Shown piece after piece: positions 1 through 64,000 of a DNA stretch of 64,000 nt. The notes beneath the pieces are model-generated. The model ran no database searches. It saw only the letters and a program-made list of their open reading frames with translations, and was not told where the DNA came from. Within the stretch, counting starts at the first letter, position 1; each line of letters starts with the position of its first letter. The stretch lies in assembly GCA_965178125.1 (NCBI GenBank), contig OZ237747.1:682001-746000 (forward strand), read 5' to 3'. Position numbers and translations under genes: made by a program. This DNA is from Bilabrum cf. latius. Taxonomy: Eukaryota.

Positions 1-1977
1 CATCTTCGATCTGCAGCGGGCGTGGCTTCTGCTCGCTGGCAGCTGCCCGGGCCTTCTCCAGTTCATCACATGCAGATGATGCGGTCGCCGAGACAGACTC
101 CATCATGCTTATTTGGTCCGTCAGAGCCATGAAAGCGTTGTCATTATCTTCCTCGGTTGCATCCTTGGAACTGGTGACCTCCATAAAGGTACCGAGAGCC
201 CCAACGACCTTGCCAACTGAGGCAAGCACGGATCGCGTGGCTCCAATTGAAGTACCTGCAGCTGCAATCATAGCTGATACCTTTGTCTTTGCCCACGTGT
301 CCAGCTGCTTTGAGTTCCAGTACACGCGCGTGTCCTGCGGTCGCCCTTGCCGCTCCTGCTCCAGGGGGTCTCGGCGGCCCCCCGGCTGGGTGGATCGCAG
401 GCGTTTGGTAGCTCGCTCCACTGCATCGTTCTTGACCTTCTCGAACTGCTCCCCCGCATGTTTCTTTCCCCTCGACGACGCAATCAAAGTCTGCTTCCCG
501 ATGTCTGACCCATCCATGGCTTCTAGGACTTTTCCGCTCTCCTCCTCGCGTGCCTCCCAGTGCCTCTGCGCCGGCTGGCGCTTCCTCTTCCGACCCAGCT
601 TCATGTGTTCTTCACGGCCCTTACACTCCGCAATGCGCTTCTTGATGTTAATTTCATGCAGAGGGGTGTCTGAATCGTAGTCCCACAGGCCGCAGTGCGC
701 GAAGCCACTGTGTACGACATGCCCGGCGGGCTTGTCCCCACTTGGTCGCAAGATGTTGGCGAGGGCGTACGCCACTGCCCTTGGCGTCCAGTCCTTGTTC
801 GTGTACGTGGTCACCAGCTTTCGAAACTCTGTCTTGAGCGGCTTGAATACCGAAACGTCCTCTACCTGCAGTTCTGCCTGCCGAGGAGTGAGGGGGGATC
901 GTCACAATGATGAGGCGGTGGGCAAAGGCCCAGGCGATGGTGTCCAAGTCGTAATGTGCCGAGTGTCCGTCTGTGATTAGGATGGACCATTCGTTTGCCT
1001 ACCGCCCCTAGTGGTTGTCAAGATTCCACACCAACTTCTCGATGAAGTCGCGCCAGAGCTTGCTGTTGATGAACGCCTTGGGTGACGAGCGGAGGAGGTC
1101 GCGCCCATGCCGGAGCACCTCCGGGTCCTTCTTGGAGATCTCGCTCACAGTGGGAGGGGGAATGGCGTCACGGTGTTTGCCCTTTGTGATGTAGATGCTA
1201 CACACATGCTTGCCGTCTGCATCCAACGCACACAGCAGCGTGGTGGTGTGCCTCGTTCCGTACTCGACGGCGTTGCAATCCTTGGCAGTTGGCCTCCAAG
1301 CGCTAGCCTCGGGGTGATTTGATGCTCCCCCGGAAGCAGCCGAGCTACTGCTTGATGATGATGAAGATGATGGAGCCCCTGTTGAGACAAGACCTGCTGT
1401 AACTGCAGCACAGCACTGGAACCCGGACTCATTGCACACGACCACTTGACGGCGCAGTTGGATCTTGAACGTCTTGAATAGGCGGCGCAGGATGGCGAAC
1501 AGCTCCCTGACGCTGCTAGCCCTAACTAGGAATCGTTCTGGCTAGTAGTTCTCATTACGCCGCGCAGAAATCTTGAACCGCTTCTTGAATCCCTTGAGCC
1601 AGCCACGACACAGCTTGTCGTACTTGCGACGGGGGAACGCTTTCTTCATATACAGGTCTTGCCAATAGTTAGCGAAAGAAATGATGAAGTCTGGATGTGG
1701 ATGAACACCTGATCTATTCAGCTCCGAAATGAGAAGCTCCAGCTATTCCTCTGCTTCCCTAGGCAATGTCGGATTTGAACCGCCTCTCGCACCGACCGTT
1801 TGTCCGGCTGCTGCCTTCTTCACCCAGTCAGAGGCAGTCGAAGATGGAATGTCCAGACCCCGTGCTTTCAGATGGGATAGAGCATCCTATTGACTATTCA
1901 TCTGGCTCAAAACCAGGATAAAAAGCTCGAATTTGGCGCTTTTTTGGGCGTCGCTTGGGAACCACTTGGGGTTCCAT
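1..1977 (-). pseudogene. pogo/Tigger-like (CENP-B HTH + DDE_1) transposase-derived gene, frameshifted; 3' end runs off the window
   Basis: With TAG read as Gln (999, 1008, 1542, 1743, 1887) the frame gives GWLKGFKKRF, VVCNESGF, TLLCALDADGK..IYITKGK, SPKAFINS, LITDGHSAH and IPPHSS. After a 4-nt duplication (CTGC-CTGC, 874-881) it continues in a new frame as ELQVEDVSVFKPLK..SGFAHCGLWDYD. The start is uncertain: the ATG at 1977 (MEPQVVPKRRPKKR) is in a third frame. Confidence 0.75.
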
Positions 1978-2236
1978 CGCCACCTCGCACGCGCGTTTAC
2001 GATATCTGCAATACACTCACATCGAGCCTTTTGTTTAAATGTTTCAAGAACTTTTTGCTGAGTGATTACTGTTCTCACTTAGCGAAAATTCGGCGAGCTA
2101 CACGCGAATTGCAGTTTGAATGCCCATTCCGACTTGACGAGCCATCCGGATTGACGAACCTTCACCCTAGTGCAACCGAAGAGCGGTTGCAACCCAAATC
2201 GGTTTCGACGGATTTCCATGAGCTATTTCATGCGAG

Positions 2237-4290
2237 ATGCGGGACCAGCTGAAAGCAATCACGGCCCTAAAGATTTTAAATTCGGCTGCATCAGATAGGT
2301 TGCTGGTCGATACCTTGATTCGATGTGTTTACAGCGTCCCAGGTGAAGCTGATGATGTAAGGCCATTTGTGGGCAAGAAAATCAGATTAAGAGAGTATGC
2401 ACGCCGAATGAAGTGCAGTTCATGTGTTTAATATACACCTTGCAGTACCACTCATCATGGGGGCCTGAACTTCTTTTGGCATTTCAGCTGGCTGTTGGGG
2501 TGTAGTCGTCGCTTTCGATCAGCCCATCCCCAGGCCAAGCCATGATGGGATTATCGCTGTAGTATGCACCAAGTGGCAATGCTAAACTATAGGGTAAATA
2601 GCAGAAGCTGTCCAAGCCCGGCAAACGATTGCGCTTACTGGCTGCGGCAGTGCTGCCAAGTCTCCTTGGGTATCTGCTGGAGCGTCTTCGGAGAGGGAGC
2701 CAGAAGCACAGGTGGCACGCGTACCGGACGGACCATCCTTTGCGAGCACTGCATGACATATCTAGCGCTGGTGGTATGGTCGCAGCATTGGCAGCTCTGA
2801 TTCAATTTGTGCGAGTACTTGCAGGCAATCGGTCGCCGACGCTCGCACACGCCCTTGCAGGAGTGTCGCTCCAAGACACCAAAAGCATATCTGAAACACC
2901 AATAACCCATCATGACGGGAAATCTTTTTTTCCCAATGCCCCAGACCCTGGCAGGGCCTCGAACTCACACCGGGAAGAGATCCGCAGGCAGTACTTTGCC
3001 ACAGCGGTGCTCGCTCTGTTCGGCTCGCTGCAGCGAGCAGTGCCTTGGAACACGCTTGGCAGGCTGTTTCACTGGCTGCTGTCTGGTCTCAGGGTCCGAA
3101 TCGAGGGCGTGATGCGCGGCATCGCAGTGGCGATTCTGCTGCGGGTGGCAGACGAGGGTTTCAGAGCTGCCGCGGGGCGCGTCCGTCCCAGGGATCAAAA
3201 TGATAGCAGGGAACAAGATAAGGAAGATAACAGCGACAGAAATACAGGCCGGAGAAGCGAGCAGGCTGGGAGCAGCGGATCCTCACTCAAGGCAATGGCA
3301 CTGCAGTGCGATGCAGGAGGGTCGCCCCGGCACGATCCCGCCGGTGATGGTAGAGCTACGAACGAGCCAACCAAACCACCGCGAGTGGGCGGGTCAGGGC
3401 CACTGTGGACTGGTATCGGCGGGGCGGCAGCTCGCTGGCTGGCCCTGGTACTAGTTTGGGGACTCACTGCGAGGGGGAAGGGGGCGCTGGTGCGGCAGCT
3501 CAGGGACATGCAGAGACCAAAGCGTGACGAGTGCACAGGCGGTTAGAGCACGGGTAAGGGCATGGCAAGTTGGTCGGGTGGAGCGGGTGCGCACCGTCCC
3601 GCGGGTGCACTAGCCCGCGAAGGGGCCAGCAAGTCAGGCAGGGGAACAAGCTGGGGAACAAGGGCAGCAGGGGCCCTCGACGTGCTGGAGGCGGAGGGGG
3701 TGCCCGTCCGTCGATCCATCGGGTCGGCTCGTGCCGCCGCCAGGGAACAAGCCGCTAAAATGAGGTTGCAACCGCTAGGACGTTGCCTCGGCGACCCCAC
3801 TCGCCCATCTAGTGCTGCCCAGAGAACAGAGCGATGGTCTCTACAGGGAACATGGGAATACCTCGCGTCGCTAAGCAGCCGTGCAGGCCGAGGCAGGGGC
3901 AGGCGCGAGCGGCCCGCGTGCGAGTTTTGCGGCGGAGTTGCGACCAATGCCGTGGTGGCACCGTGTGGGCACTGCTACTGCCACGTGTGTCTCTGGTCGC
4001 AAGTGGGGAGGATTCGGTCAGAGCAGTAGCTAGGGGAAGGTGCAGGGCACGGTGGTACGAGCAGGGAAGAGCAATAGCAAGGCGATCCCGCCGGATGCAT
4101 TCCTGACGGCGCAGTGCCTGTGTTGCTGCCCTCGTCAGGGGCAGGTGCAGACGATCCGTTTGCAGGGGTCGGGCGTGCTGTAGGTGCACCGCATGGTAGT
4201 GCTTCCCTACCGGACGAGGACGGTGCTCCTGCACTTGCAGTGGAATGCCCGGCTTGCACAGAGCCTGTGCTGGCCGTCGAGAGGATCTGA
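2237..4290 (+). CDS. PEX2: Peroxin-2-like RING peroxin (exons 2237-2356 and 2446-4290; 7 in-frame TAG)
   Basis: Pex2/Pex12-type N-terminal motifs WGPELLL, SPGQAMMGL and LAALIQFVRVLAG..PTLAHALAG. C3HC4 RING CEFC..PCGHCYCHVC...CPAC. Intron GTAAGG..TGCAG at 2357-2445. TAG at 2503, 2560, 2590, 2599, 3544, 4027, 4075; TGA stop at 4288-4290. Confidence 0.7.
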
Positions 4291-4466: not shown

Positions 4467-5435
4467 TCAGTCGCTCTTCTTGTCGGTGGCGCTCTCGCCT
4501 CCCTTCCGCTTGCCGCTCCTCTTGGGCTTGTATCCGATGTTGCGGACCAGTCCCGAGCGCGCGATCGTGTCGCGGACCCCGTCGGCGATGCCATAGAACA
4601 CCGAAGCGATGGCGAACATAGTGGAGGGGAACGCGATCACGGGCAGGTCGTTGGCCAGCCCAGTCTTGACGATGCGTGCGGCCTCCTTGACGTCCACCGG
4701 AAGGAAAGCGTCCTTTGTGCTTGCAGCAACCATGGGGGTGCTCACGAAACCGGGCTCAACCCTGTTGACCAGGATGTTCTCCCGGTAGAGCTCGGCGCGC
4801 AGCCCAGTAGCCCACGTGCTGACGGCCTTCTTGGAGGCGGCGTACGCCTGGGAACCGGAGACGCTGCCCACCATGCGGATGAGCGACGATACGATGGCGA
4901 TCTAGCCGCCCTTCTTAGTCTCCCGGAAGCTCTCGATAGCGGGAAGCACGGTGTTGTGAACGCCCTGCACGTTGATCTGCGTGACAACCTCCGCGCCCTT
5001 GCGAATGTCCTTCTGAGCACCGATTGTGCCTTCCGAAACCCCCGCGTTGGCAATCACCAGGTCAATGGGCATCTATGTATGAACGGTACGAATCATGTCG
5101 GCCATGCCTTCCTTGTTGCATACGTCCAGCTGCTTTGGAATCACAACTGCTCCTTTGGACTTGCAGAGGTCCTCAACTGCTGCAAGGCGATCCCCGTTTC
5201 TGCCAACCAAAACTAGGGTAGTTCCAACTGAGGCGTACTCAATTGCAAGGGCCTCTCCAATACCAGAGGTGGCTCCCGTGATGAGAATTGTCTTTGCCTT
5301 TGGGGCAGATGCTCGTACAAAGGTCCCGACGAAGGCGAACGGAAGCACGAGGCAATTAATCACCATAGCGAGCGCCTGGGCAATGATGGCAATAACCATC
5401 TGCATGACATACCCGAGCCTGGTACCTTCGAGCAT
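4467..5435 (-). CDS. Short-chain dehydrogenase/reductase, copy 1 (N-terminal hydrophobic segment; 2 in-frame TAG)
   Basis: TGATSGIG Rossmann motif, IANAG and catalytic YAASK. TAG at 5073-5075 and 4902-4904 join the ORF fragments in frame; TGA stop at 4467-4469. Start chosen by alignment to copy 2; an upstream ATG at 5468 is also possible. Confidence 0.9.
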
Positions 5436-5565
5436 CTTGCGCGATGGAATGGCTTTGAAACGTTTCATGCGTTTGAAGGCTTTGTTGCGTGTACTGCCAG
5501 GTGCGGTATTTGAGCGGCCACACCCTGCCGGCTAATCCTTGGAAGGGGACATAATGCCATCACTT

Positions 5566-6579
5566 TCAATCCGCTTTGATCCCACTCCTAGACCCTCTTC
5601 GCTTCCTACCATCTTGACCAGCCCCGGACTCAGTCGCAGGTCCACCAGCCCCTCCTCCGAGGTACGCCATGTCCTTGAGCACCCCGATCCTAGCGACGGT
5701 GTCGCGATTCTGGTCCGTGAGACCGCGCAGAATGCTACCCAGAAAGTACATCGAAGAGGGCGTCGTCACCACGGGAAGGTCATTGGCTAGGCCCCGACGG
5801 ATGCCCAGTGCGGCTGCCTCTGGCGTGAGAGTGAGCATTGGCTGCAGCACCGAGACTTGCGACTCAACCATGGGAGTGCTCACGAAACCGGGCTCCACGC
5901 AATTGATCAAGATCCCCTCGCGAAATAGCTGCGCTCGGAGGCCTCCTGCCCATGCGGACACGGCGCACTTTGATGCGACGTACGCCTGCATCTACGTGAT
6001 GGGCCCGACGAGCCGTACCTGGGAAGACACGATTGCAATTTGCCCGCCGCCTCCCGATTGCCGGAAGGCCTCGATGGCAGGCAGTACCGTGTTGTGCACG
6101 CCGCTTATATTGATGTCCGTCACCGCTCGAGCCGCCTTATCAAGATCGCCAAAGCATTTGCTCAGAGTGCCCTCCGACACACCCGCGTTTGCGATCACAA
6201 GATCGATAGAGTGTTTGGCGTGAACGTCGTCGATGAGCTGCTTCATAGCGGCTTGATCTCTAACATCCGCAATTCGCTCTACAACGGTGGCCTTTTTCTG
6301 TTCGCATTCTGACTTGACCTGCTTGAGGCGCTCTGCGTTTCGCCCCACTACAACCAGGGTCTTGCCCTCGGCTGCATACTCCAGCGCGAGTGCCTTACCT
6401 ATTCCACTCGTAGCGCCAGTAATAACTATGGTGCTAGGTACTGGCGCACCTCTCCAGAATGCAATGGAGAGCACGGCTGTGACGGGAAGCAGAATGGCGT
6501 TCACGATTCCAGCAACCACAGCAGCTATGTTCGCGAGAAACATTTGAACGATGTAACCGAACTTAGTACCCTCGAGCAT
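5566..6579 (-). CDS. Short-chain dehydrogenase/reductase, copy 2 (tandem paralogue; 1 in-frame TAG)
   Basis: TGATSGIG, IANAG and YVASK. TAG at 5992-5994 lies between GPIT and MQAYVASK; TGA stop at 5566-5568. Confidence 0.9.
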
Positions 6580-6752
6580 CGCTTCCACAATCTTGATTTC
6601 GAGCTTATGAGATGGACCTAGTCTGTGTCTGTCCGGTGAGAGCCAGTCTTCGCAACGGCTCCCAGCGCACCTAACACTGTCAATGCAGTGCAGTTGCAGA
6701 CGTAGTCAAATCCAGCAGAAGTGGTCAAAGCATCCTAACCACCGCCCGACCC

Positions 6753-9700
6753 TCAAGCAAAACTCCAAGAGAAGACACCTTCAGACTCCTGTGCCGCTCC
6801 GGAAGCAGACGAGAAGCTCTCAGTCGTCTTGCCAAGGCCATCGACGCCATCGCCCAACTCCACCGCAACGCTCACCCCCGCATCCAAAACGTGGGCTGCC
6901 ATCCTCACCTCTTCCGGCTTGCACCGAAGCAACTGCTCGGCTCCATCCCTCGAAACGAGGACGACACGCAGCTGCGCCCTGCGGCCCGCCGCCCATGAAG
7001 GCAGCACTACGCAATGCCAGCGGTGAGCGTAAGCGAGCACGCAGGGCGCCTGCAGCCGCATACTTGTCCCGACAAGCGATCGCTAGTCAGGTCTGGCCGT
7101 TTCTCTCTCACCGGGAGACGATGAAAATGAAGAGGAAGAAGAAGAAGCCAAGAACCCCAGCTCAAGCCGCCGAGGCACCCCTTCGGTCGCTAGGAACAGC
7201 CTCTCTTGCAAGGATTCAGGGCTTCGAGAAGTGCCATCGTGCAGTGCACCCGGAGCTTCTGCACCCTCCACGGGCGGATGTTCCCCTTCAAAGCGCACGG
7301 AACGGCGAGTCTCCTCCCCGGCGGCCCCGGGGGACGTGTGCCGTCCGTCGCTGGCCCCACTGGCAGCATGGGGGGCCTCTAGCCTCCGCCAGGCGGGGCC
7401 CTCTCCATACACGCGCACGCTGTTCCCCAGCGGAGGGTCTGCCACTGGATCACCGCCCGCGATGTTGGTGTGACGAGTGCCCACCCTCGCGCTGTTCCCC
7501 GATTCGAGGCTCCAAGCTCGAGCATCCAGGCGCTCCGCCGCCCCTCCGCCCGCAGCCCCCATCGGTCCCACAGCAACCAGCCGCCAGCCGCCGCACCGCA
7601 CGCCCACCCCACTCGTCACACCGACACTACTGTCCTCAACGCACACGGCCCAGGCGAGGCACAGCGCTCTGCCAGCTGCCAGGCCCGTGGGAAGGCGACT
7701 GCTCTCCAGCAGCTCCGCCTCGCGCCCCTAGCCCCCCTGTGCCACACCGAGGAAGGCAGCCATCCTCCACTCCAGTAACGCGCAGCCGGCCCCAGCCCCA
7801 GCAGTCTGCGAGTTGCTTGACCCAGTCGCCCTCGCAGGAGGCAGCCTCAGTTCCAGCGCGGGCTTCGAGCACCGGAGCAGCCCAGTGCCACCGTCCTGCG
7901 CGATCAGCTCAGCAAGAGGGGCGGCCCAGTCGATTGCGCGAAGCTGTTGTGATCCCAGGAGAGCCTTCGTCCGTCGAGCGTGAGCTGACAATGCACCGCC
8001 ACAGATCGTCTTGCACACTGCCGGGTGCGCATCCCCAGCAATCACCCAGTGCTCAAGGGAGGGGAGCTGGGATGGGAGCTGCGTCTGTGCTGGCGTGGCG
8101 CGACTGGACCATGTGCCGGTGGCATCTCCTCCTGTCGGCCCGTCCGAACTGAATAGGTCGACCGTCTTGGTGTATTTGGATCTCTCCGAGGCGTGTTCCC
8201 TGGCAAGGAACGTTCGCTGAGTGGCATCCATCACGTCGCTCCGTCTCTCGGCCGCCGCCTCGTCCTCGTACCCGCTGGCCGCGCCGCTCCCTCGACCAGA
8301 ACCCTTGCCCATGTCATCACCTCTGTAGGGTGCACCTGCCTCGCCATCGCTACGAAGCCGAGTCCCAGCACCATCTGAATCATCGCCCGCACCAATGGCA
8401 CGGCGGGGTACCCAACCTTCTGGTGGCAGCAGCCGACCCATGGCTAGCAGTGCAGCCTGCCGCAGGCTACCCGCGACTGCAGCTGGCGAATGCGCTGCGG
8501 TCGCCTCGAGCGCGCCGTCATCAGCGCAGCCGCCAAAGTCAAGCTTCGCCCTCGATGCGACCATTCCTGTGGGCACACCCCATGGGGTGGAAGCAACGCC
8601 GTGGTCCCAGTGGTCGCGAGTACCAGGTTTGCCAGGCATTGAGGGCGGCTCCGTATCGAGCAGCAGCCCGCACTCCTCCATGGACCACAACACGTTCAAC
8701 GTGCCCTGTCGGCCGTCGCCGAACCAGGCCACCGGCGCACCCACCACGTTCGTCGCCCGCTACAGATCCATCGCACCGTCACTCGTCACACCGCAGCCCC
8801 GAAGGTCCAGCAACCGCAGCCTGAAGGCCCAGTCTGACCCTGCATCGGGCTTCGGGGCAGCCCCCGGCCTCGTCTCCTGTGGAGCATCTAGCCAAGCCTC
8901 GCACAAATCACCGGCACACTCACCCGCGCCCCTGGCGCCTAGCCGGGGATTGCTTCGAAGCGCCAACCGAGCCATGCTGCCGTGCTCGGCTGCCGCCTTC
9001 CACAGGCAACGACATGCCTCACCGTCGATGCCCGAAAAGGACAGGTCCAGCGACTGCAGAGAGGCAAGAGCTGGAGGCTGCATCGTTGGGCCTGCGTACT
9101 GCCTCGACCACGCAGTTCCTGCAAGCTGGGCTACTCCCTCTCCAGTCAACTCAAGCGCCTCACCATTGGAGGAAGGCGGGCTGGATACTCCATCTCGGGA
9201 CAGTTGGAATCGCCCGCTTGCTGATGTTGCTGCAAAGGGGGAAGGTACGTAAGGAACGCACGATTCGATGGCCCCACGAGTTGTCCCTGCGGCCAGGGAC
9301 CCAACCCTGTCGAGTGTGGTCCTCACGAGCGACGCAAAGCTCACCTCGCTCGAACCATCGACGCCACCTGCAATGACCCGGTCACTGCCACGTGGCCTGC
9401 TCGATTCAGAAGAGGGCCACGGGCCCACCTCGCTCGGCATTTGGTCGCCTTCATCACTCTAATCATTTGTCTCGGAGCCCCTGATGGCGCTTCGTGCTCT
9501 GGGTGCGCCAGGAGAACCCTACCGACGAGGAAAGCCGGCCTTGGAAGCCAGATCCAGGAGGGACAACGCCTGCTCGATGTCCACCGGGGGATTCTCCCTG
9601 GATCCTTGGTGCTGCTTCCCCCTTCTCTTTCTGCTGCTAGAGCTCCCGCGGTGCTTGGACGAAGAGGACCTTCCACGGGCTTTGCCACTCTTAGTCGAGC

Positions 9701-11768
9701 CAGTGCCCTTCTTCCCTCTGGCGACCTTGCCTGCCTTGTCGGACTTCCCGTCATGCACGTGCTAGAGGGCCTCCCTGGCCTGATCGGCCACTGCACGGCG
9801 GACCCAAGGCGCCACATCCCTAGCCCACCACTCGTCAAACAGGCCGACCACCGCGTCAGGGACGCACGGCGCCTGCAACGCGTCGCTGATCGAAGCCACA
9901 CCCCGCGCGCCGACCATGGACCTCGACACATCAAGCCGACGCAGGTCTCCGAGGAATCGAGCCACGCGGAAATACTCCGCCGCCGCTTCAACCACAGGGT
10001 GCTGGCGGGCAGCACGGCCGTGCGTGTGCCCCTTCGCAGCCTTCCCTGCGTCGCTCCTACGCTCTTCGTCATCATCCTCTGCGCGTCCAAGCGCCTACAG
10101 CAGAGCCCGGTGCAGAGCCCATGCCGCCCGCCGCCCAGTCACCAAGTCCCGCAGCAGCAGGGGGTCCAGCCGCGAGCCCCTGAGGCTGAGGCTGAGAACA
10201 CCCTCACCGGCCGGGGCATTCGTGGAGGCACCCCCGGGCGATAAAAGAGAAGAGGAAGACGACGATGCGTGCCCTCGCCTAGAAGTCCCCCGGCCAAGGC
10301 CCGACTTGGGTCGGCCGCCCCTGCCGCTGCCTTTCCTCTTCTTCTTGCCACCCTTGCCACCAGACGAGGCAGGCGGGCCGTACGCTGCCGGGTCCTGAAG
10401 CAGCCGGTCGGCAATCGCTGACAGCGCAGCTCTAGCTGCTGCCATGTCAAGCCCGCGACCAATTGCCCGAAGCAAGTGCTCCGTGCCGCCGAGCAGCTGC
10501 TTGCCCTCGTCGTCCACACCGCTGGAGGGCTCTGTCACCTGGGGCCCGCCATCCTGCAGCGCTCCACCGAAATGCATGCCTGCGTACTCTGGCCCGATTC
10601 CGTACAGCTCTTCTTCTTCCCTTTCCTGCGGGTCCTTTTCCCTCCAGTCACGGTGCGTCTCGAGACCTGCTGCCCCCCTGCTCCTCCCGGACGTGCGGGC
10701 ATCGCGGCTCCTGCTCCTGCTTCTGCTGCGCTTGCCCCCGCCTCCCTTGCGCCTGGAATGTCCCTTCCTGCCCCTACCATGCCCATCCCTCTCGCTGCCG
10801 CCCCGCCCCAACCCATCTGCCAGCGCGCCCAGGGGCCCCCGCCGGACGAGAGACATCGAGGCGCTGTGGTCAACGAGGGACAGCCCGAGGTGCGCCAGGC
10901 CCTTGTTCCCCAGGGATGCCTCGAGGACGACCCCGCGCCCCGCATCGCCCCCAAAGTAACACCCCGTCGCGTCGAAGCACCTGATGCTCCGGTTGGTCGC
11001 AAGCCCAGCGGCGAGGGCCCCGGCGCACCCCACCCCCATTGCGGGGTTGTCGGCCAGCACCAGGGCCCTGAGGCCCCCATGCGCAGCTCCAGCCAGAGCG
11101 GAATCCTCATCGTTATCACCGTCATCTTTCTGCTCAGAGTGGTCAGTGTCCGGTGACTGCAGACGTTTGCCGCTTCTGGACCCGGCACCAGTCTCGCCTG
11201 CATCGCCCAGCTGCGGCTTAGAGCTGCGCTTCCTCTTGCGCGAGTGCTTTAGAGCCTGTCCCAGCTGCAATAGCTCCAACAAGCCGCTTGCGTGTTCCTC
11301 CCCAAGCCCCGACTGGCTGAGATCCACGCTAGTCAGCACGGTGGGCAGGGCAAGCAATTGCCCGGGCACTGAGCCCAGGACCGCGCTGCTCACTGGCATG
11401 CCAGCAAGGTCGAGAACATGGATCGGCCTCTCGCCAACATCTCCACCGCATGCTTTGCAACCTTTCTGTGCACCAGGAAGCTCCAGAGGAAGAAGCCTTG
11501 AGCAGTCGAGGTCACGAATCGTAATCTGTGAGCTACGTGGCTACTCCGCACGAACGAGCGGCTAAACCAGACCACTTTCACCGGATTCTCTGCTGTCAAG
11601 CAATTTCGAGACGGACTGTCTCAATTCGTCGATCTCGCGCTGAGCAGCTTCTTGTTTGAGCTGCGAAAGGGCCTGCTGTTTCGCCAGCAGTTCATCGACC
11701 TGATCTTCGATGGCACGATGGATTTCAACCCCAGCAGATGCTGCTGCATGTCGCCTCTGCCCTCTCAT
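6753..11768 (-). CDS. About 1670-aa protein with dispersed RI-like leucine-rich repeats and low-complexity insertions (9 in-frame TAG)
   Basis: Eight ORF-track fragments share one frame and are separated only by TAG (11562, 11541, 10095, 9762, 9519, 9459, 8760, 7728, 7083). LRR-type motifs LTSVDLSQSGLG, LRALVLADNPAMG, LRRLDVSRSMVG, LQSLDLSFSGID and LRLLDLRGCGVT. TGA stop at 6753-6755. Confidence 0.7.
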
Positions 11769-11954
11769 TGCCAAGCTTGCTGTTTGCAAGACTGCTTGTG
11801 GTTTTCTTGGGTTTTGCAATTCCGTTGCCGAAACGGCCCTCAATCAAGTTCCGCAACGCGCGGCGCCTATCTATTCGGAGTCGTTCGTGCATTTTGAATT
11901 AGAATAGAAAAGCGCTCCAAGAGCCATCAAACTCAGTTACTGGCATCTGATAGC

Positions 11955-36554: not shown

Positions 36555-36636
36555 CTGTGATGAACCACTTCGATGTGAATTGAAATTTGGACAAGCAAGT
36601 ATTTGTAGGACAAGCAAAGCCGTCACCGCACATCGA

Positions 36637-49446: not shown

Positions 49447-49805
49447 TGTATCTGGAACGTATTATTCTGATCGCAGTCTTCCAAAAGGTGTTCCCGAACC
49501 GAACTATGAACAATTCCGGTTATTAATGTAACGAAATGAATCATAACTCAAACATGGAGGTTGTCAACATTTCCTCCAACAAATAGCTAGGAAGGCAGTG
49601 TCATTGAGCACTGCGTGGGTGACTTATTTTAAAGTATCTATTGTGCGCCTATAGGCTCTGAGAATATCAATAAGATTGACCGACTGCACCTGTGAAGCTG
49701 TCTTGGTTGCCACCAACGGGTGTCGACACACCGAGTAGCCAAGGAGCAGGTTGGGTTTAGCAATATTGCGTAAGCTTTCTACGCTGAATTAATTTAGTTG
49801 CCAGA

Positions 49806-52800: not shown

Positions 52801-53433
52801 ATCAGACTTGACGCGACCAACAGCCACGCCTTCCACAACCGAGGCATTTCGTACGACAAGAAAGGACAGTTCGAGCAAGCCATTCGGGATTTCACCAGGG
52901 TGCTCGAGCTGGACAGCTCCAACGCGAACGCATACTTCAACCGAGGCTCCACCCACGACTCGATCGGCGCGTACGACAAGGCCATCGCTGACTACACGAG
53001 GGCACTCGAGCTTGACAGGCAGGTGTCGGGCTCGCCCCCGAATGGGCCGCAGGGGACAGGCGCAGGGCAGGCTAGCGCGGGCGGTATCGCGGCAGGGAGC
53101 GGCGACCCTCCCGTGCTGGCTGGGAGGGGCGATGTGGCACGGGGTGGTGTGACGAGAGTGGGCGCCACTGCTGCCCCCGGAGGCAGGGGTGGCAGGAGAC
53201 AAGGTGAAGCCGGCGGGAGAGCAGCGGCAGGCCCTGGCAGAGGTGCAGTGGGCCGACAGCGGGGCGGGGCTCCAGGCAGCAGCGCCACGCCTTCCGTGGG
53301 CGCCGGCAGCCGGCCAGGCTCATCGGCAGCGTCCAGCGCCAAGCAGCCACCCAGAAGCGGTGCACGTCGCACTGTCGGCGGCAGAGGCTATGCAAGTGCT
53401 CGAAGACCTGGCGGTCGCGGTGCCAGAGGCTGA
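49806..53433 (+). CDS. TPR-repeat protein with about 3 N-terminal and 12 tandem C-terminal TPRs (exons 49806-49998, 50098-50181, 50279-53433; 4 in-frame TAG, all in exon 1)
   Basis: 34-aa repeats AY.NRG..Y...G.Y..AI.DYT.A..LDP at about 51800-53015. Two phase-1 GTAAG..CGCAG introns. TAG at 49812, 49845, 49860, 49890; TGA stop at 53431-53433. Confidence 0.85.
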
Positions 53434-54228: not shown

Positions 54229-54844
54229 ATGGCTGTTAGGCCGAAGAAGCTTTTTGATGCCGTATAGGACCTTCCGCCGAGGAAGGGATTCCCCAATATT
54301 GTGAAATCGTGAGATAAGCAAAGCAACGGAGCTGCTGGTACACTCTGCCCTTTGTTATCCTCAGTACGACACCAACGATTTTGGGTAGCATGCAAAATTG
54401 ATATTGCAGTGTATATGGGCCAAATGTTAGGCGGGGCCCTGGTGGTGTGGCCCTGCTGGGCATTCTCGTAGGCACCACAGTTGTGTCTTGGGCGTACTGG
54501 TTGCGCAGCCGGCAGGACGATGAGTGAGAACATCCGAACGTAGCAGCTGTTGCCATGTAGAATGTTTTCGTGGTTGTTTCATGCTTCCCGAGTTACTGCT
54601 GGTCCTGAACGTGCACCGCAGCTACTTTCGGCTGGCAAAGATGAACGAGAGGTACGAACGTGCGCATGTCTTGCAAGCTAGGGAAGAAGCTTCGTATGCC
54701 AAGAGATTGAAGCGGCAAATTGACCTTGAGCGAGAATGGAGTAAGGATGTGCCTGGTTACGTAGTGAACCAGAGCGTGTATTACACAAAGAAGGGCGAGA
54801 GGCCGCACATTGATCCTACGGACCCTCGCATGAAGCGCCACTGA
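54229..54844 (+). CDS. NDUFA13: Mitochondrial complex I subunit NDUFA13/B16.6/GRIM-19 (exons 54229-54308, 54410-54523, 54622-54844; 1 in-frame TAG)
   Basis: V*DLPPRKGFPNI (family motif QDMPP.GGY), RRGPGG plus a TM helix, LQARE and KDVPGYVVNQSVY. Phase-consistent GTGAG..CAG introns. TAG at 54265-54267; TGA stop. Confidence 0.85.
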
Positions 54845-55126: not shown

Positions 55127-56801
55127 TCACTTGCCGGCGCCGCCGGTGGCAGCTCCAGGCGCGGAGGCGGCAGCAGCAGCAGCGGCCGACGCACCCGGCG
55201 CATCCGAGTCGTAGTTGAGCGAGGGCCGCAGCCATCGCTCCACCTCCTCCACGGGCATGCCCTTCCTGGAGGCATAGTCCGCGATCTGGTCCTGGCCCAG
55301 CTTGCCAACGGCGAAGTACTCGGCCTCCTCGTTGGCGAAGACAAGCGCCGACACGGCGGACGCGGGCAGCATCGCGAGCGAATCGGTCAGCTTGAGGCCG
55401 ATGGACTCCTCCACATTCAGCAGCTTCCACATGGTGTTCTTCTCCGTGTGGTCGGGCTGCGAGGGGTACCCAGGCGCGGGCCGAATCCCGTCGTACTTGA
55501 CCTTGAGGAGATCGCCCTTGGACAAAGTGGCTGCCTCCTCGGGCGCGAAGCCCCAGAGCTCGCGCCTCATGCGCGCGTGCAGCTGCTCGGCGAATGCCTC
55601 GGCGATCCGGTCCGCCAGCGCCTGCAGCATGATCTTGGAGTAGTCGTCGTGGTCCGCCTCGAACTCCTTGAGCTTGTCCTCCACACCGAACACGCCCACA
55701 GCGAACGCGCCCAGGTAGTCTGCCTTGCCGCTCGCCTTGCTGGCGATGAAATCGCTCAGGCACAGGTAGGGCTCGTCCGTCTCCTTCTCCGCCTGCTGCC
55801 GCAGCCCGGCGTACACTGCCTGCGCCTTGGCACCCTTGCGGCCCTCCTCGTCGTCGCCCGTCTCCGTGCCGTAGATCTCGATGTCGTCACCGACAGAGTT
55901 GGCAGGGAAGATGCCGCAGACCCCGCGGGCCTCCAGCCACTCCTCCTCCACGATCTGGTTGAGCATGGCGAGCGCGTCGTTGTGCAGCTTCTTCGCTTCC
56001 TCGCCCACGTCGGCGTCGTTGAAGATCTTGGGGTATCCCCTGTTCGGGTACTTGCCTCTGAGCTCCCATGTCTGGAAGAAGGGGTTCCAGTCGATGTAGT
56101 CGAGCAGCTCTGCGATGTTCTGGTCCTCGATGACGGTGATTCCCTTCGCCTTGGGCTTGGGGGGGTCCTTGCGCGCCGCCCAGTCGATCTGCATGCCCTT
56201 GCCCCTGACCTCCTCGATGGGTAGGTACACCCTGTCCTCCAGTCCGGCGTAGTGCTCCTCCCTCATCTCCTCGTACAGGTCATCGATCTCCTGCACGTAC
56301 TCTGTCCGCCTGGCCTTGTCCTCGTCCAGCAGGCTCTGCACCACCGTCACGGAGCGGGATGCGTCAAGCACGTGGATGACCGGGTGGTCCGTGGTGAAGT
56401 AGTGAGGGGCGACCTTGACGGCCGTGTGCATGCGCGACGTGGTGGCGCCGCCGATCAGCAGGGGCAGGTTGAGGCCGGCCTTGGCCATCTGCTTGGCCAC
56501 AAACACCATCTCGTCCAGTGAGGGAGTGATGAGGCCAGACAGGCCGATCACGTCCACCTTCTCCTCGATGGCCCTCTTGATGATCTGGTCGCAGGGCTGC
56601 ATGACGCCCATGTCGATCACCTTGTAGTTGTTGCAGCCAAGCACCACGCCCACGATGTTCTTGCCGATGTCGTGCACATCACCCTTGACAGTAGCCATCA
56701 GCACCTTGCCGGCGTACATGTCGTCCCCTGCGGTAGAAGGGTCCACTCCCATCTTCTCCATCTTGAGCTTCTTCTCCTCTTCCATGAAGGGGATCAGGTG
56801 C

Positions 56802-56835
<34 letters not shown>

Positions 56836-57428
56836 TCACCTGGGGCAGGAACATCTTGCCGCTGCCGAACAGGTCACCGACCACGTTCATGCCGCCCATG
56901 AGGGGTCCCTCGATCACCTTGAGTGGCACCTAGAGAAGCTGCCGGGCCTCCTCCGTGTCCTCGATGATGTACTTGGGCAGGCCCTTGACAAGGCTGTACG
57001 TCAGGCGCTCCTCGATCGGCTTGCTGCGCCAGGCCTCGGCAGACACGGCGGCCACGACCCCCCCGGCCTTGGCAGCGTCCGCCTTCTCCTTCTCAAGAAG
57101 CGACCGCTCGAGCAGCCTCTCGGTTGCGTCGTCCCTGCGACACAGCACGGCATCCTCCACGAGCTCGAGGAGGTCCTTGGGGATGTCATCGTAGACCTGG
57201 AGCATGCCCGCGTTCACGATGCCCATGTCCATGCCGGCCTGGGTTGCGTGGTACAAGAACGCGGAGTGCATCGATTCGCGGATCACGTTGACGCCGCGGA
57301 AGCCGAATGACAGGTTGGACACGCCGCCGCTGATCTTCGCGTGCGGGCACTGCTTCTTGATCTCGCTGCAGGCCTCGATGAAGTCCAGGCCGTACCGGTT
57401 GTGCTCCTCGATACCAGTGGCAATTGTC

Positions 57429-57460
<32 letters not shown>

Positions 57461-59436
57461 AGGGAACCCGACCTTGGGTCCCACCAGCATGTCGTAGGAT
57501 CGCTTGCAGATGCGGATCTTCTCGTCTCTGGTGGCCGCCTGGCCCTCCTCGTCGAAGGCCATGACCACACAGGCGGCACCGTAGCGCTTGACGAGCTTGG
57601 CGTGCTCGATAAACTTCTCCTCGCCCACCTTGAGGGAGATAGAGTTCACGATGCACTTGCCCTGGGCGTTCTTGAGGCCCATCTCCACGATCTCGAACTT
57701 GCTCGAGTCCACCATCAGAGGCACCCGCGCGATGTCAGGCTCGGTGGCAAGGATCCGCAGGAATTTCTGCATGGCCTTGACACCGTCCAGCATGCCGTCG
57801 TCCACGTTGACGTCGATGACCTGTGCGCCATCCTCCACCTGCTTGCGCGCCACCGCCATGGCCTCCATGTAGTTGCCCTCCAGTATGAGGCGCTTGAACT
57901 TGCGGCTGCCCGCGATGTTGCACCTCTCGCCGATGTTGACGAACCCGAGCTGGTCGTCCACCTTGGTGTGCTCCAGCCCCGACAGAATCATGACGGGCTC
58001 CCTCTCCTTCCACTCGCGGGGCTTGTGCTTGGACACAGCCGTGGCGATGGCGTTAATGTGCTCAGGGGTCGACCCGCAGCACCCTCCCGCGAGGTTGAGC
58101 AGCCCTTCCTCCGCGAAATCGCCCAGGTCCTCCCCCATCTCTTCCGGGGTGGCGTCGTACCCACCCATGGCGTTGGGCAGGCCGGCGTTGGGGTACGTGA
58201 AGAAGTACGTGTCGGCGAAGGCAGCGAGCCTCTGCACGAACGGCTTCATCTGCTTGGCGCCGAGTGCGCAGTTGAGGCCGACGGCGAAGGGCTTGGCGTG
58301 CCTGATCGAGGTATAGAAGGCCTCGCCGGTCTGCCCGCTGAGAGTCCGACCGGACTGGTCCACTAGAGTGCCTGACACGAACACTGGAAGCTTCCTGCCG
58401 ATCTTTTCGAACACCTGGTCCACGGCAAAGAGGGCCGCTTTTGCGTTCGCAGTGTCGAAGATGGTCTCCACCAGCACAACGTCGATGCCTCCCTCGATGA
58501 GTGCCTCGACTTGCTGGCTGTACGCCACCACCAGCTCGTCAAAGGTCACGTTGCGGACGGAGGGGTCCTCCACGTCGGGACTAATACTGAGCGTGCGGTT
58601 GGTAGGGCCCACGGCGCCCAGCACGAAGCGGGGCCTGCTGGGGTCCTTCGCCGTGATCTCGTCGCAGGCGCGGCGCGCAATCCTGGCGCTCTCACGGTTC
58701 AGCTCAGGGACGAGGTCTTCCATTCCGTAGTCGGCCTGGGCAATCGTAGTGCCGCTGAAAGTGTTAGTTTCCACGAAGTCTGCGCCGCCCTCCAGGTACT
58801 GGCAATGGATTTTGTGGATCACATCGGGCTGCGACAACGTCAGCACGTCGTTGTTGCCCTTGATGTCCATGTTGTAGTCCACGAAGCGCTCGCCGCGGAA
58901 ATCTTCCTCTTCGAACTTGTGCTTCTGCGAGATAAGTTCAGAGGCATTTTACGAGCTTCGGGCGCAGTAGCATCCAACGCACAGCTAATCGCTCTCGAGC
59001 GCAAGCAACACACGAGGTCGCAACCGGCCGCATTAAAAATGCCAGACGGTGGTCTCTGCCCGTAAATCTCATAATGTAATTTGTACTGTATGCGGGATGG
59101 CAACTCCACGCCAACGAATAAGTCCAAACACCATGTGCCCCCGCCCACCAACTCGCTTACCTGGATCATAGTCCCCATGGCACCGTCGATCACCATGATT
59201 CTCTGCTTCAGAGTTTTGTGAAGATACTCAAAGATATCAGACTTGCCTGCATTGGAGAAAATAATGGAGTTGTCGGGCTGGAGGCGTAGGAGTATGCAGT
59301 CGCTGACGTCGCCAACTACCGCAGCCGAATAGATCCATGATTAACTCCTCTTACCGCGAATATACGTCTCCCCGGTGTCAGCAGAACTAGAGTTTGCTGG
59401 CCCGGCATCGCCTCCTGCACCCGATACTGCTGCCAT
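55127..59436 (-). CDS. MTR: Cobalamin-dependent methionine synthase MetH (exons 59436-59355, 59246-59161, 58924-55127; 1 in-frame TAG)
   Basis: [45 protein letters not shown]12-binding [20 protein letters not shown] and the activation-domain motif [12 protein letters not shown] at 56930-56932 lies within the cap domain ([18 protein letters not shown]); TGA stop at 55127-55129. Confidence 0.97.
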
Positions 59437-59620: not shown

Positions 59621-62600
59621 TTACACACCATTTTCGATCTTCCTCAGGAGCCGCGACGCATCATCCAACGCATCGTCGGCATCGCAGTCCTCCCCGCCAA
59701 TGCCCCGGGAGGACCCCTCCCCAGAGCGAGATCTGCCGTCTGCCCCAGCAGCACCATGCAACCCGCCTGTCGGATCTACACCGAGTGCTGCCCACCCCGT
59801 GCCGGAGCCCTTCCCCGAGTTTTCCCCTGCATCGGCCACTGCGGCATCTGCCCCGTCCCACGCGGCGTGTTCCGCGGCATCGCCGTAGAGGCGCCGCGCA
59901 CCTTGCGGAGCGTACGAATAGGCGGACGGGTCCTCCGCAGCATGCGTACGGGCTGGCTTCTGCCACGTCATCTCAGAAGCTCGCGGCTGTGCGCCTCTGG
60001 TGAAGCCAACCCTCTCGTTCCCCAGGTGTACCCCGCCGCTGTTGAGGGGCTCCAGGTGCTGCCTGTGGGACAGGAAAACCGGAACTGCCACGCCGCACCC
60101 GTCATCATCCTCTACTGACTTGTGTTCCTCAGAGTGGAGGGCCCCCCTCGCCTCTCTTACCCCACCTCGCAAGGACCCGCCACCAGCTGCAAGCCTACTG
60201 CCAACCGGCGCGCCCCTTGGTGCCTCCTCCCAGCCGTACTATTCCCTCAGCCTCGCCCTTTCCTCCGCAGGCAGCTCGTATAGCGCAACACCAGACGAGA
60301 TCGTGTCCCTTTCTTCATCCGCCTCCAAAGGTGCCAGCCCCTGTCCCATAGAGGCCAGTGTGGCGGGGTCGGTGACCTGATCAGCCGAGGCAGCACCTGC
60401 GGAGGCCTCCGCCGCAAGGGCGCCTCGCCCCGCCCATGTGCTCCCCAGTGCCCTGCTGATGTACCCCGCCTGCAGCTCCAGCCGCTGTTCTCTGTCCAGG
60501 GCCGCAGAAGAACGCCCGCTGCGGGTACGACTCGCCTGCAGGCGTTCCACAGGATCGAAGCTTGGGGCACCCCCGCCCCGTCCTATGCGTCTAGCCCCGG
60601 TCGCTCGGCGCGTTGCTCTCTTGCGCTTCTTCGCGCGGCGCCTCTTAAAGCGGAACCTCGGGGGCATGCCTAGCTCGGATGGCTTTGCCAGAAGCACCGT
60701 CTCACCGGATGGCATTGCTCCCGCGCCCTGAGCACAACTGGCTGTTACCACCGGCCCCGCCAAGATCTACCTGCGCCCCTGCAGCCTTGCTCTGTGCAGG
60801 GCTCGCCCCGCGCCGCTCCGCGGATCCTTCGATAGAACAATACCGCGGTGTCTGGCCAGCGGAACCGCACCGGCGCCGCGCCCTATCCTGGATCGAACGG
60901 CGCGGCGGCTGCTTGCCAGGCCCTCGGATGCGGCACCGAACGCATCCGTCTCTGGTGCCGCCGCGCTCGCGCCATACACGAGTCTTCGCAGGCGATGCAC
61001 GGCGCGCTCGAGCCTGGATGCCTTGTCTTCCGACTGCTTGGCCGAGCGCTCTGCGTCTTTCCTGCGCTGCTCCGCGCTCGCATTCGCGTCAGCAAGCCGC
61101 ATGACCCTGTACTCGGCGGCGATCGCCCTCATCCGCAGCGACTCGGCCTTGCTTCTCGCCTGCTTGGAAGCCTGCCGGGCCCGCCTGGCCTCCTGCTCTC
61201 CTAACCTCCTGCGGTCGTCTGCCTTGTAGGCTGCTGCCTCCGCCTCCGCCTTGGCTTCCTTGGCTTCCGCCTTGGCTGCTGCTAGCCGACGCACGGCCTC
61301 GTCGGCCTCGACTGCCCGTGCATGCCTCTCCTCTGCTGCTCGGAGCCTGTCCGCCTCTGCCCGCGCTCTGTGCGCGCTCTCCTCCGCCGCGCGGTGCCGT
61401 GCGGAACCAACGCTGGCTTCGTGTTCCCTGGCCATGGCCTGCACCTGTTCTCCGTGGGATGACTGCAGGGCCATGATGTGCGCTCGCGCGTCCTGCAGCT
61501 CGCCCTACACCCTCGCCTCCCTGCGCTCGGCCTCGACACGAGCAGCGTCCCTTGCCGCGGCCACCTCCGCTTCCCTCCTGGCCTCTGCCTCCGCCAGCTT
61601 TGCATGCAGCTCGGCTCGGGCCGCCGCTCGTATGGCATCCTCTCGGATGGCAGCGCGCCTAGATCCGCTGCTGGTTGACTTGGACGAATGGCTGCCACCG
61701 CCAGACTACGATCCAGCCGAACGCGATCCGGAACTGGAACCTGAGCCGGTGCCGGAGGCAGAGGAGGAGGAGGAGGAGGGTTGTCGCACTGGCCTCGCGG
61801 ATGATCTGCCCGTCCTCCGACTCGCCCGGCTGCTTGCCACTGAGGATCTGCCCGTCCTCCGACTCGCCCGGCTGCTTGCCACTGACCCGGTTCTGCTCCT
61901 TTGGCGTGTGCCGCTACCTGCCAACGACCGTGCTGCGATCGAACCCGCCCTGGATCGCGACACCGAAGCTGCTGCCGATGCGGCGCGCCGTGAGCGGGCT
62001 GAACCGGGCACAGACACAGACCCGGACGGTCGTCTCGAGCCAAGCTAGCTGCCGCGAGTGGCACTCCGGCGGCGCGCTGACGCCTTGGGAGCCATAAGTC
62101 TAGCCTTCTGCCGACTGTCGGCCGGCGCAGTAGCTACAGATGCCTTGCCTGTGACGCCAATGCGGCCGACTCTGCCTGTGGCAACAAGAGGATCGGGCAC
62201 GCTGGCCGACGGACCACGCGCGCTGAGGCGGGCACGACTGCTCTGCTTGGATGTCCTAGATGCCTGCGACCTCTTACTGCTGCCTCCTGCGCTCCTTGCA
62301 ACGGACGCCACGGATCGCGCCTTTCTTTGCGATGATGATGATGCTCGACTGGCTCCGCCGACCGACCCAGCTCTGCTCCTCCTCGCCGCGCTGCTCACGG
62401 ACCCAGACCTGCTCTTTGACGCAACGGGTAGGCCACTGCTGCTTTTCGAAGCCTTCCGCCTGCTTGCTACTGAGCCGGACTTGCGCGATGCATTGCTAAG
62501 GCTGCTCCGCCGCGGTGGAACTGAACTTGTCCGGTTCCTGCTGCCTCGCGAAGAGCTAGCTGATACCCTGCTGCTAGAGACCGCTTTGGAATGGAGCGGC

Positions 62601-64000
62601 GGTCTGCTGCTGGATCGGTTCACGGTTCCTGCCCCTGCATGCTTCAGACCCGTTTCTTCGTCCGAAAAGGAGGCGCTCCTACCTCTCCCACTTTCACCGC
62701 TGCCACTGCTCGGCGAGCTCAAGGCGGAGGCAGCACCTCGGACGGCCCACCCGCCGAGCTCGAGGTCACGGCTGTCACCCTGCAGGTCGTCCTCGTCCTG
62801 CTTCTCGTCCTGTCGTGCATCGTGTTGGCTACCCTGCAACCCGTGACGTGTCTCGTCACCTGCCCCGATCGGCGCGTCGCCCGATCTAGCGCCCATGTCT
62901 GGGATAGGCAAGTCGGGCCGCTGGCGAATCAGCAAACCTGGCGGGATGCCAGAGCTGTCTGAGGACTGCCCAGGCGAGGAACGCAAAGACACAAAGTGGG
63001 AAGGCTCCGCAGAGGCTGGCACAAGACCGCTCAGCGCATCTCTCGCGACATCAACCTCTTGCCTGTCATTTGCAGGGCTGGTCGCGTGCTGGGACTTGAC
63101 GTTTGCACTTTCTGGGGATGACTGCTGCTCACTCTTCGCTTGTTGCGAGCTACCATCCGCTAGAGCTGGTGGAGTACCAGTATCAGAATTACTGGGCCTG
63201 CCTAGGCTGCCGTCAGCATCAGCACCGTGCTAGCGGTCACTACCAGGGGAAGCATCCTCCTCCTGCTCGTGCTCCTGCAGCTGCTGAAAGGGCGAATCGC
63301 AAGCAAATCCAGAGGCAGCCGCTAGAGCAATGCGAGCTCTTTCTGCGTCAGATAGGAGCCGCCGACCAGCCGGTGACTCGGCTCCAGGCCCGGCAACGGA
63401 TGCTGACGCTCGCCTGGACCTCTGCTTGTGGGAGTTCTGTGTTTGTGCCTTGCTGCCATGACTTGGTGCCGCGCGGGGTTGCTTTGGTGATACAGTAGCC
63501 TTCAACCACAGCTGTTCCTGTCGGCTTACCGATTTCCGGCTTTTTTTGGATTGCTTTCCGCTGCTTATCCGGCTACGGACGGATGTGGAGAGGCTGTGGC
63601 TCCTTGCTTGTCTCGCCACCCTGCTGTCCTTCCGGCCTGCGACAGACGACGAATCTCCGTCTGATTTCTTGCTCTTTGACCTGCTTGAGATGCTCCTGTG
63701 GCTATTTGTTTCATTGATGATGCCAACGGGGAAGCCGCCAGGTCCCAGTTCCGGTGACTTGTGGCTGCCACGCGCGCTGCCATCCACACGCATGCCCCTG
63801 CGGCTGCCTCTGCGACCGCTGCCACTGCCACTGCCGCTGCTTGCCGTGCTCCTCTCACCTCCGCTGCCGCCATTGCTCCCTCCAGTCGACGGTGCACTGC
63901 TGCCACCGCCACGGCTGACGGCCCCGCCGCTCTGTCCTCCGCCCTACGCGGAGGCAGCAGCAGCCGAGCCAACGCTCGCACCACCGTGCTGAGGCAGACC
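59621..64000 (-). CDS. Large Ser/Arg/Ala-rich low-complexity protein with a coiled-coil segment; 5' end off the window (at least 6 in-frame TAG; ends in TAA)
   Basis: Six fragments share one frame and are joined through TAG at 63230, 62045, 61706, 61505, 60767 and 60239. TAA at 59621-59623. Confidence 0.65.
61803..61885. repeat. 42-bp-period direct repeat (x2) inside a CDS, encoding SVASSRASRRTGRS twice
   Basis: gatctgcccgtcctccgactcgcccggctgcttgccactga occurs at 61803 and at 61845. Confidence 0.9.

Follow-up and report, generated by a model that had tools for sequence, protein, structure and literature searches.

The window analyzed here is a 64,000-nt stretch of nuclear DNA (GCA_965178125.1, contig OZ237747.1, positions 682,001–746,000) with a GC content of about 0.60, few introns, and long open reading frames (ORFs) arranged in blocks that alternate between strands over the whole 64 kb. 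Nearly all of its genes contain the triplet TAG in frame, where it very probably encodes glutamine instead of termination. The longest frames measure 1090, 1057, and 673 amino acids (aa) when all three stop codons of the standard code apply; with TAG read as sense they reach 2207, 1854, 1740, 1697, and 1460 aa, and with TAA read as sense ORF lengths are almost unaltered. Counting both strands, there are 338 TAA, 844 TAG, and 1535 TGA triplets. Gene models were delimited from stop to stop with TAG read through, giving 19 frames with 99 TAG; when each is counted to its stop from the first ATG or the exon start, 94 in-frame TAG remain in 18,178 codons, distributed over 18 of the 19 models. The original prediction for this DNA, made from its letters, had about 98 TAG in 20 of 21 gene models; the recount comes close to this and bears out the presence of TAG in nearly all genes, at slightly different numbers. 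That prediction also placed NDUFA13 among the TAG-bearing genes, which was mistaken, as the exon identified as GRIM-19/NDUFA13 (54524–54844; 23.6 bits, below the Pfam cut-off of 25) has no TAG. The only model without a coding TAG is a TPR-repeat protein (49774–53433, forward strand, stop TGA), with introns at about 49998–50096 and 50180–50276 and no TAG in its 1052-codon last exon; the TAG of this gene fall in an intron or in the uncertain 5' part.

A Pfam search with X in place of each TAG recovers ordinary eukaryotic genes whose domains run across the X positions (MetH, importin, DNAI2, short-chain dehydrogenases or SDRs, PEX2, GH79, and NSA2), and Pfam or PDB alignments show unbroken homology across TAG in MetH, importin, DNAI2, the SDRs, PEX2, and GH79, in keeping with the prediction that domains continue in frame. 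The cobalamin-dependent methionine synthase MetH (55127–58948, reverse strand, stop TGA) has a single TAG at 56932–56930. It contains five Pfam domains in the expected order, and its residues 7–1249 align to human MTR across the TAG with E = 0; its N-terminal exon was not found in the window. An importin-beta of the Importin-5/Kap121 type (19356–22772, reverse, stop TGA) has TAG at 21542–21540 and 19724–19722, with residues 44–1134 of 1138 aligned to residues 87–1092 of 1096 of IPO5. The ribosome biogenesis protein NSA2 (48458–49446, reverse, Pfam S8e, stop TGA) has one TAG at 49300–49298 in exon 2 (49327–49139), which is followed by exon 3 (49051–48458). Its start ATG (49446–49444) occupies the final three bases of exon 1, with an intron directly after it. 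A PEX2-like peroxin (2356–4290, forward, Pex2_Pex12 plus RING, stop TGA) contains seven TAG, and a GH79-type glycosidase with a PAN domain (34611–36554, forward) contains three, one of them (36543–36545) just three codons before its TGA.

Three SDR genes are present. SDR-c (33530–34531, reverse, stop TGA) has two TAG and encodes a protein ending in AKL. The others form a tandem paralogous pair (4467–6705, reverse, both with TGA stops), with three TAG in 4467–5765 and one in 5566–6705. One TAG of the former lies opposite a Gln of its paralog (GGXIAIVSS versus GGQIAIVSS, compared by eye). These tandem SDRs are membrane-anchored, and about 200 nt are shared by their stop-to-stop frames.

In the gene models TAG would account for about 12% of glutamine codons (CAG 561, CAA 149, TAG 94; GC content at third codon positions 0.71). 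UAG is rarer in the most conserved genes: its density is 0.8 per 1000 codons in MetH and 1.9 in importin, and it is commonest, at about 10 per 1000, in lineage-specific genes. Along gene deciles, TAG numbers are 17, 9, 12, 3, 9, 10, 6, 9, 12, and 7, an even spread with no depletion toward gene ends.

Three adjoining genes were used to compare TAG sites with homologs. The first encodes DNAI2, the axonemal outer-arm dynein intermediate chain 2 (39033–40988, forward, stop TGA), with Pfam and PDB matches and five TAG. Exon 1 (39033–39131) and exon 2 (39312–40988) are separated by an intron at about 39132–39311. The spliced frame begins with MEVIVQYEKK, resembling that of Cafeteria, and the protein aligns with the Chlamydomonas and Tetrahymena chains in the PDB through the TAG positions. 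The second (36637–38985, reverse, stop TGA), here called unk782, encodes a conserved protein of unknown family with 470 homologs, and its five TAG have their first bases at 38313, 37800, 37599, 37377, and 37083. The third, unk2206 (41166–47609, forward, stop TAA), encodes a large lineage-specific protein and contains 21 TAG.

In an alignment of DNAI2 with 119 homologs, the column of the TAG at 39579–39581 has Gln in all 119, and the other four are dominated by Asn, Thr/Ala, Ser, and His, each with some Gln. The closest DNAI2 relatives have Gln, Ala, Gln, Gln, and His at the five sites. At 39345–39347 the residue is Gln in Cafeteria and in the homolog P0003; at 39372–39374 it is Ala in Cafeteria; at 39426–39428 it is Gln in the homologs P0002 and P0003 and in Cafeteria; and at 40347–40349 it is His or Asn in most homologs. 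In an orthologous gene from a metagenome (contig L001, see below) the same five sites read TAG, CAG, TAG, CAG, and CAG. A public 425-aa DNAI2 fragment of the organism itself (P0001, corresponding to 39651–40985 of the window and derived from a 2161-nt contig) has Gln at the TAG at 40347, which implies that some gene caller has already translated TAG in this way.

In the unk782 alignment, with 150 cluster representatives, two TAG columns are mostly Gln (100 of 129 residues in one and 75 of 117 in the other, gaps excluded). A third site has Gln in a fragment that is 96% identical, the fifth has Gln in a protein that is 55% identical, and the remaining site falls in a gap. For the ten TAG sites of DNAI2 and unk782 taken together, column log-odds calculated in the manner of Codetta are +12.0 for Gln, −4.6 for Ser, −9.9 for His, and −10.4 for Asn. 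Each of twelve control codons recovers its own standard residue by the same calculation, so that the expected enrichment for Gln at TAG columns was found with controls that behave. For unk2206, fragments that are 85–94% identical have Gln, Gln, Ser, Gln, and Glu at five TAG.

The ends of relatives' predicted proteins were also compared. Six of nine such fragments end directly before a TAG of the window (three) or a Gln codon (three), with P = 5e-7; for unk2206, three of four fragments from relatives end exactly before a window TAG. Ends at such sites are expected if the gene caller used for the relatives stopped at the relatives' own TAG.

A metagenome scan with DNAI2 recovered about 17 kb of a relative, on contigs L001 and L009. 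Its orthologs are 94% (DNAI2), 67% (unk782), 67% (GH79), and 47% (unk2206) identical to those of the window at the aa level. DNA identity is about 80%, and megablast of the two contigs matches only 395 bases, at 81.5%. Because this match is so short, the comparison was made at the protein and codon level. The gene order differs: in the relative, unk782 stands between DNAI2 and the unk2206-like gene, and GH79 lies downstream of DNAI2. Frames of 776, 892, 588, and 1383 aa appear in the relative only when TAG is read through, and an ABC transporter there has 16 TAG between and within its domains.

The 18 TAG of the window that could be aligned face CAG in eight cases, CAA in one, TAG in two, and other codons in seven; in the reverse direction, 19 TAG of the relative face CAG in nine cases, TAG in two, and other codons in eight. 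The four aligned unk782 sites read CAG, CAG, CAG, and CAA. A Gln-type partner (CAG, CAA, or TAG) is thus found for 11 of 18 TAG (61%), the same proportion as for CAG itself (60 of 98, 61%), as against 4% for GAG, 1% for AAG, and 0% for TAC and TGG; compared with a 5% background, the value for TAG has P = 1e-10. No single non-Gln codon occurs at more than two of the 18 sites. In these alignments, with CAG as the decisive control, TAG behaves as a synonym of CAG. Since the divergent relative has in-frame TAG of its own, a clade shares the code, which is older than the split between the two species. Together with the column log-odds, these comparisons support the assignment of UAG as a sense codon for glutamine, as had originally been predicted.

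Eleven public sequencing runs contain the window or part of it. Four of these, from three studies, were compared over positions 33401–53400: X1; X5 and X7, which come from a single study; and X6. A single 44.5-kb contig of X1 covers this stretch with introns retained and no differences, and may be where the window sequence came from. The other three have gene-sized contigs without introns and, not being recorded as RNA, were taken as RNA since their contigs lack introns. All three show the joints 39131>39312 in DNAI2 and 49051>49139 and 49327>49444 in NSA2. Overall, five GT..AG introns are removed in contigs, the two in the TPR gene in X5 only. X5 has a flat depth of about 19 everywhere, and its long unk2206 contig, which may be DNA, was not used as RNA evidence.

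Across the full 20 kb, none of the four runs shows any other letter. Six TAG lie within spliced contigs, five in DNAI2 and one in NSA2, and are unaltered there; the two in SDR-c and the five in unk782 also fall within gene-sized contigs. UAG sits in mature, spliced mRNA. Because the spliced contigs keep TAG with identical letters, assembly error and complete U-to-C editing are excluded. The original prediction had asked for UAG in mRNA and for a check against systematic error; the former was found in spliced contigs of three runs from two studies, and identical contig letters in four runs from three studies speak against the latter.

No gene had been predicted to end in TAG, and none of the 19 models does: 16 end in TGA and three in TAA. 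This count is partly circular, since TAG had been treated as sense in setting the frame boundaries, but homology independently fixes four C-termini, each of which is followed by TGA, not TAG. The unk782 protein ends in FVAFVH, as do homolog P0154 and the ortholog in the relative; the importin alignment reaches to within four residues of the IPO5 end; the NSA2 end coincides with the end of the Pfam domain; and the GH79 end matches that of the relative. In the relative, CAG stands in place of the near-terminal GH79 TAG, which is therefore sense. UGA terminates translation and is the main stop codon.

There is no TAA inside the gene models in 18,178 codons. Upstream of frames, TAA occurs at the donor of an NSA2 intron or in apparently non-coding sequence, and the sequence beyond the three ORFs that end in TAA looks non-coding. 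TAA also comes directly after the unk782 and GH79 C-termini of the relative, which are the same as those of the window. The evidence supports UAA as a terminator and not a sense codon, as predicted.

The organism was placed with DNAI2; no rRNA was found in the window (no Rfam match of any family). The best named match is Cafeteria roenbergensis, at 61% identity, and all other named matches are stramenopiles. In a FastTree reconstruction of 120 DNAI2 sequences, the query falls in a clade of nine with support of 0.993, of which Cafeteria is the sole named member. On this single-gene placement, the organism is a bicosoecid-like stramenopile, a heterotrophic flagellate close to Cafeteria, and neither a fornicate nor a ciliate. 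A flagellar dynein, a peroxin, a methionine synthase, and a probable complex I exon would fit a free-living aerobic flagellate. C. roenbergensis belongs to the same lineage and, like the window, is GC-rich with few introns; its full-length DNAI2 (599 aa), compared at the protein level, has Gln at three of the five TAG sites. No code change for Cafeteria is mentioned in the accessible parts of the Cafeteria four-genome paper or of the literature searched.

The explanation that best accommodates these results, and one in which we have high confidence, is that nuclear UAG has been reassigned from stop to glutamine in a Cafeteria-related stramenopile, with UGA as the main stop and UAA as another (NCBI table 15). 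By analogy with other reassignments, UAG would be decoded by a tRNA-Gln(CUA), or by something equivalent that reads UAG, and eRF1 would still recognize UAA and UGA but no longer UAG. New TAG would arise mostly by C-to-T transitions from CAG, the dominant codon.

Several points weigh against this explanation. The column of the MetH TAG is variable (Arg in human, Thr in E. coli), and the first importin TAG faces Glu in IPO5, so that both sites are uninformative. As noted above, four of the five DNAI2 columns are dominated by residues other than Gln, and seven of the 18 window TAG face non-Gln codons in the relative, as do 39% of CAG. The identity of the amino acid is drawn from alignments only. 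Contigs, unlike raw reads, drop rare variants, and a minority edited form could be missed. The standing of UAA as a stop in the window rests on three ORF ends without homology support, the verified ends being in the relative, and the taxonomic placement comes from one gene. No decoder was seen: eRF1 is not in the window, and no tRNA was found in the 64 kb by ARAGORN or Rfam, or by ARAGORN in L001, L009, and L011 (a more distant metagenome contig), an uninformative absence given that the search covered only the window and 17 kb of the relative.

Of the alternatives, the one that survives best, and it is an unlikely one, is that UAG is read as Gln by the normal tRNA-Gln(CUG) through a first-position mismatch, with a weakened eRF1, so that the TAG represent efficient read-through. 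This would agree with the lack of a tRNA(CUA) in the 64 kb and 17 kb searched, and with the minority status of TAG among Gln codons (94 versus 561 CAG) and its low density in MetH and importin. So little sequence was searched, however, that a missing tRNA means nothing, and 94 TAG in essential genes, up to 21 per gene, would presumably need near-complete read-through. To our knowledge, other eukaryotes that read UAG, or UAA and UAG (UAR), as Gln carry cognate suppressor tRNAs.

A double meaning for UAG, as Gln inside genes and as stop near some mRNA 3' ends, in the manner of Condylostoma, the karyorelicts, or UAA in Blastocrithidia, is quite improbable. A terminal TAG would be hidden here by the way in which the frames were delimited, and TAG occur three and eight codons before TGA in GH79 and in the coiled-coil protein at 29622–33386. 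A further point concerns unk782, where the contigs of X5, X6, and X7 all end at 37011–37035, inside the frame and 46–70 nt past the TAG at 37083, and 3' untranslated regions (UTRs) of neighboring genes are about 45 nt long. However, the protein beyond this TAG is conserved to its last residue in P0154 and in the relative, in which the site itself is CAA. The near-terminal GH79 site is likewise sense in the relative, all four homology-fixed C-termini are followed by TGA, and TAG is not depleted toward gene ends, in a sample of only 19 genes. The TAG at 37083 was considered as a stop in its own right and rejected, as the downstream domain and C-terminus are conserved; the break adjoins a G-rich stretch encoding GVGVGGG and is probably an assembly break.

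It is very improbable that the reassigned UAG stands for another residue (Glu, Leu, Ser, Tyr, Lys, or Trp). Single sites do face Glu, Ser, Ala, His, Asn, or Arg in some homologs, but the log-odds given above favor Gln over Ser, His, and Asn, no other codon recurs at more than two of the 18 orthologous sites, and TAG does not resemble GAG, AAG, TAC, TGG, TTG, or TCG. A standard code, with the TAG as sequencing or assembly errors, pseudogene lesions, or codons edited to CAG in mRNA, has next to no probability: the only point for it is the minority edited form that contigs could miss, as against the agreement of four runs, the retention of TAG in spliced contigs, the occurrence of TAG in housekeeping genes with intact domains, and a second species in which some TAG coincide with those of the window and others occupy different Gln sites. 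As little can be said for UAA and UAG both encoding Gln (the ciliate and Hexamita code 6), with UAA made rare by GC-richness; TAA is indeed the rarest stop triplet, but at the CAA:CAG ratio (149:561) the models should hold about 25 internal TAA alongside their TAG, and none is observed, reading through TAA does not lengthen ORFs, three ORFs end in TAA ahead of non-coding-looking sequence, and TAA follows two homology-fixed C-termini in the relative.

Reassignment of UAG to Gln with UAA retained as a stop has few precedents. The accessible text of PMC11687900 lists Iotanema spirale, Protocruzia tuzeti, and two origins within phyllopharyngean ciliates as cases in which UAG alone means Gln, as well as UAG as Leu in a rhizarian and as Ser in Scotinosphaera. 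The precedents named in the original prediction (I. spirale and the phyllopharyngeans) are thus accurate, with P. tuzeti to be added. The closest parallels are the phyllopharyngeans Hartmannula sinica and Trochilia petrani (McGowan et al., 2024; PMC11687900), described in the text available as also using UAG alone for Gln and UAA as a stop, on similar evidence (internal UAG at conserved Gln columns) and with no sign of a double meaning. In those ciliates UAA is found at 93.5–100% of aligned C-termini (according to the same portion of PMC11687900), unlike the GC-rich stramenopile window, in which UGA ends 16 of 19 models. I. spirale, a fornicate, and P. tuzeti, a ciliate, share the codon and residue and have UAA unreassigned, and belong to unrelated supergroups. 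Because the supergroups are unrelated, and the window has a PEX2-like gene, a probable complex I component (GRIM-19), and a Cafeteria-like DNAI2, an origin independent of those in Iotanema and Protocruzia is likely.

The UAR-to-Gln codes (table 6), listed in the same accessible text for ciliates, Hexamita, Streblomastix, Ulvophyceae, and Amoeboaphelidium (PMC11687900), resemble the present case in that stop codons one transition from CAG or CAA have been captured by Gln, and differ in that UAA is also sense. Among viruses, some giant viruses and phages also read TAG as Gln and keep TAA and TGA for termination; code 15 is one of those tested in the GVMAGs V2 catalog (PMC13524828). The hosts of TAG = Gln viruses and phages are unknown or bacterial; the window, by contrast, belongs to a cellular eukaryote.

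No report of a nuclear code change in a stramenopile was found in the full-text literature, the coverage of which is incomplete, with most subscription journals outside it; the accessible parts of PMC12560768, PMC13768787, PMC11412368, and PMC10120064 contain none. Provisionally, then, the code itself is known (table 15), and what is new is the stramenopile lineage and the GC-rich, UGA-terminating background in which it occurs. Nuclear codes that split the meanings of UAG and UAA are rare, confined to a handful of lineages in the text available from PMC11687900, and a GC-rich, UGA-ended background bears on how stop codons become free for capture. As the change is shared with a second, strongly diverged species, it should be datable by sampling bicosoecids. 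Because Cafeteria-like flagellates can usually be cultured without difficulty, bench work on the tRNA and eRF1 behind the code should be possible. There is also a practical consequence, in that gene callers using the standard code will truncate most proteins of such organisms; fragments of 85 to 476 aa in databases show this truncation.

A cellular eukaryote with exactly this code would also be a candidate host type for TAG = Gln giant viruses of unknown host. Unrecognized host associations for alternatively coded giant viruses are raised in the accessible text of the GVMAGs V2 paper (PMC13524828), and Cafeteria is described as a giant-virus host in that of PMC6972860. The combined proposal, that a Cafeteria-like clade of at least two deeply separated species switched UAG independently and supplies the missing hosts of these viruses, is speculative, and we regard it as doubtful.

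The remaining models of the window also contain TAG. A DDE-transposase-like ORF (654–2078, reverse, stop TGA) has five. A mobile element here thus appears to be written in the host code; the match to DDE_3 is weak (E = 0.0029). A large LRR-like protein (6753–11843, reverse, stop TGA) has nine TAG, and a large membrane protein, unk1739 (13974–19193, reverse, stop TGA), has eight; a search for shortened homologs of the latter found only one 86-aa fragment, covering no TAG site. Two coiled-coil proteins are encoded on the forward strand, at 23712–29273 (four TAG, stop TAA) and 29622–33386 (nine TAG, including the one eight codons before its TGA stop mentioned above). A low-complexity or coiled-coil protein (59621–64000, reverse, stop TAA) runs off the window with seven TAG, six of them after the first ATG.

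The five introns removed in contigs (39132–39311, 49052–49138, 49328–49443, 49998–50096, and 50180–50276) are 87–180 nt long, with GTAAG, GTGAG, or GTTAG donors and CAG acceptors. Four of the five have a CTCAC motif 5–15 nt before the acceptor, possibly a branch site. The NSA2 transcript contigs of three runs extend about 650 nt past the stop (47808–48457, reverse), with no convincing ORF, and reach the 3' end of the convergent unk2206. The extension may represent a long 3' UTR, overlap with a convergent transcript, or a non-coding RNA. Between DNAI2 and unk2206 there is an A-rich tract (41082–41117) that reads as a Lys run in one frame; reads appear to be cut there, and the tract was passed over as a repeat in the comparison of runs.

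Lastly, three distant DNAI2 homologs (L006, L011, and L012) lie on AT-rich metagenome contigs with GC contents of 0.32–0.42. Reading TAA as sense lengthens their frames from 460 to 697 aa, from 428 to 587 aa, and from 372 to 485 aa, respectively, so that they look like genes of UAA-sense organisms, such as ciliates.

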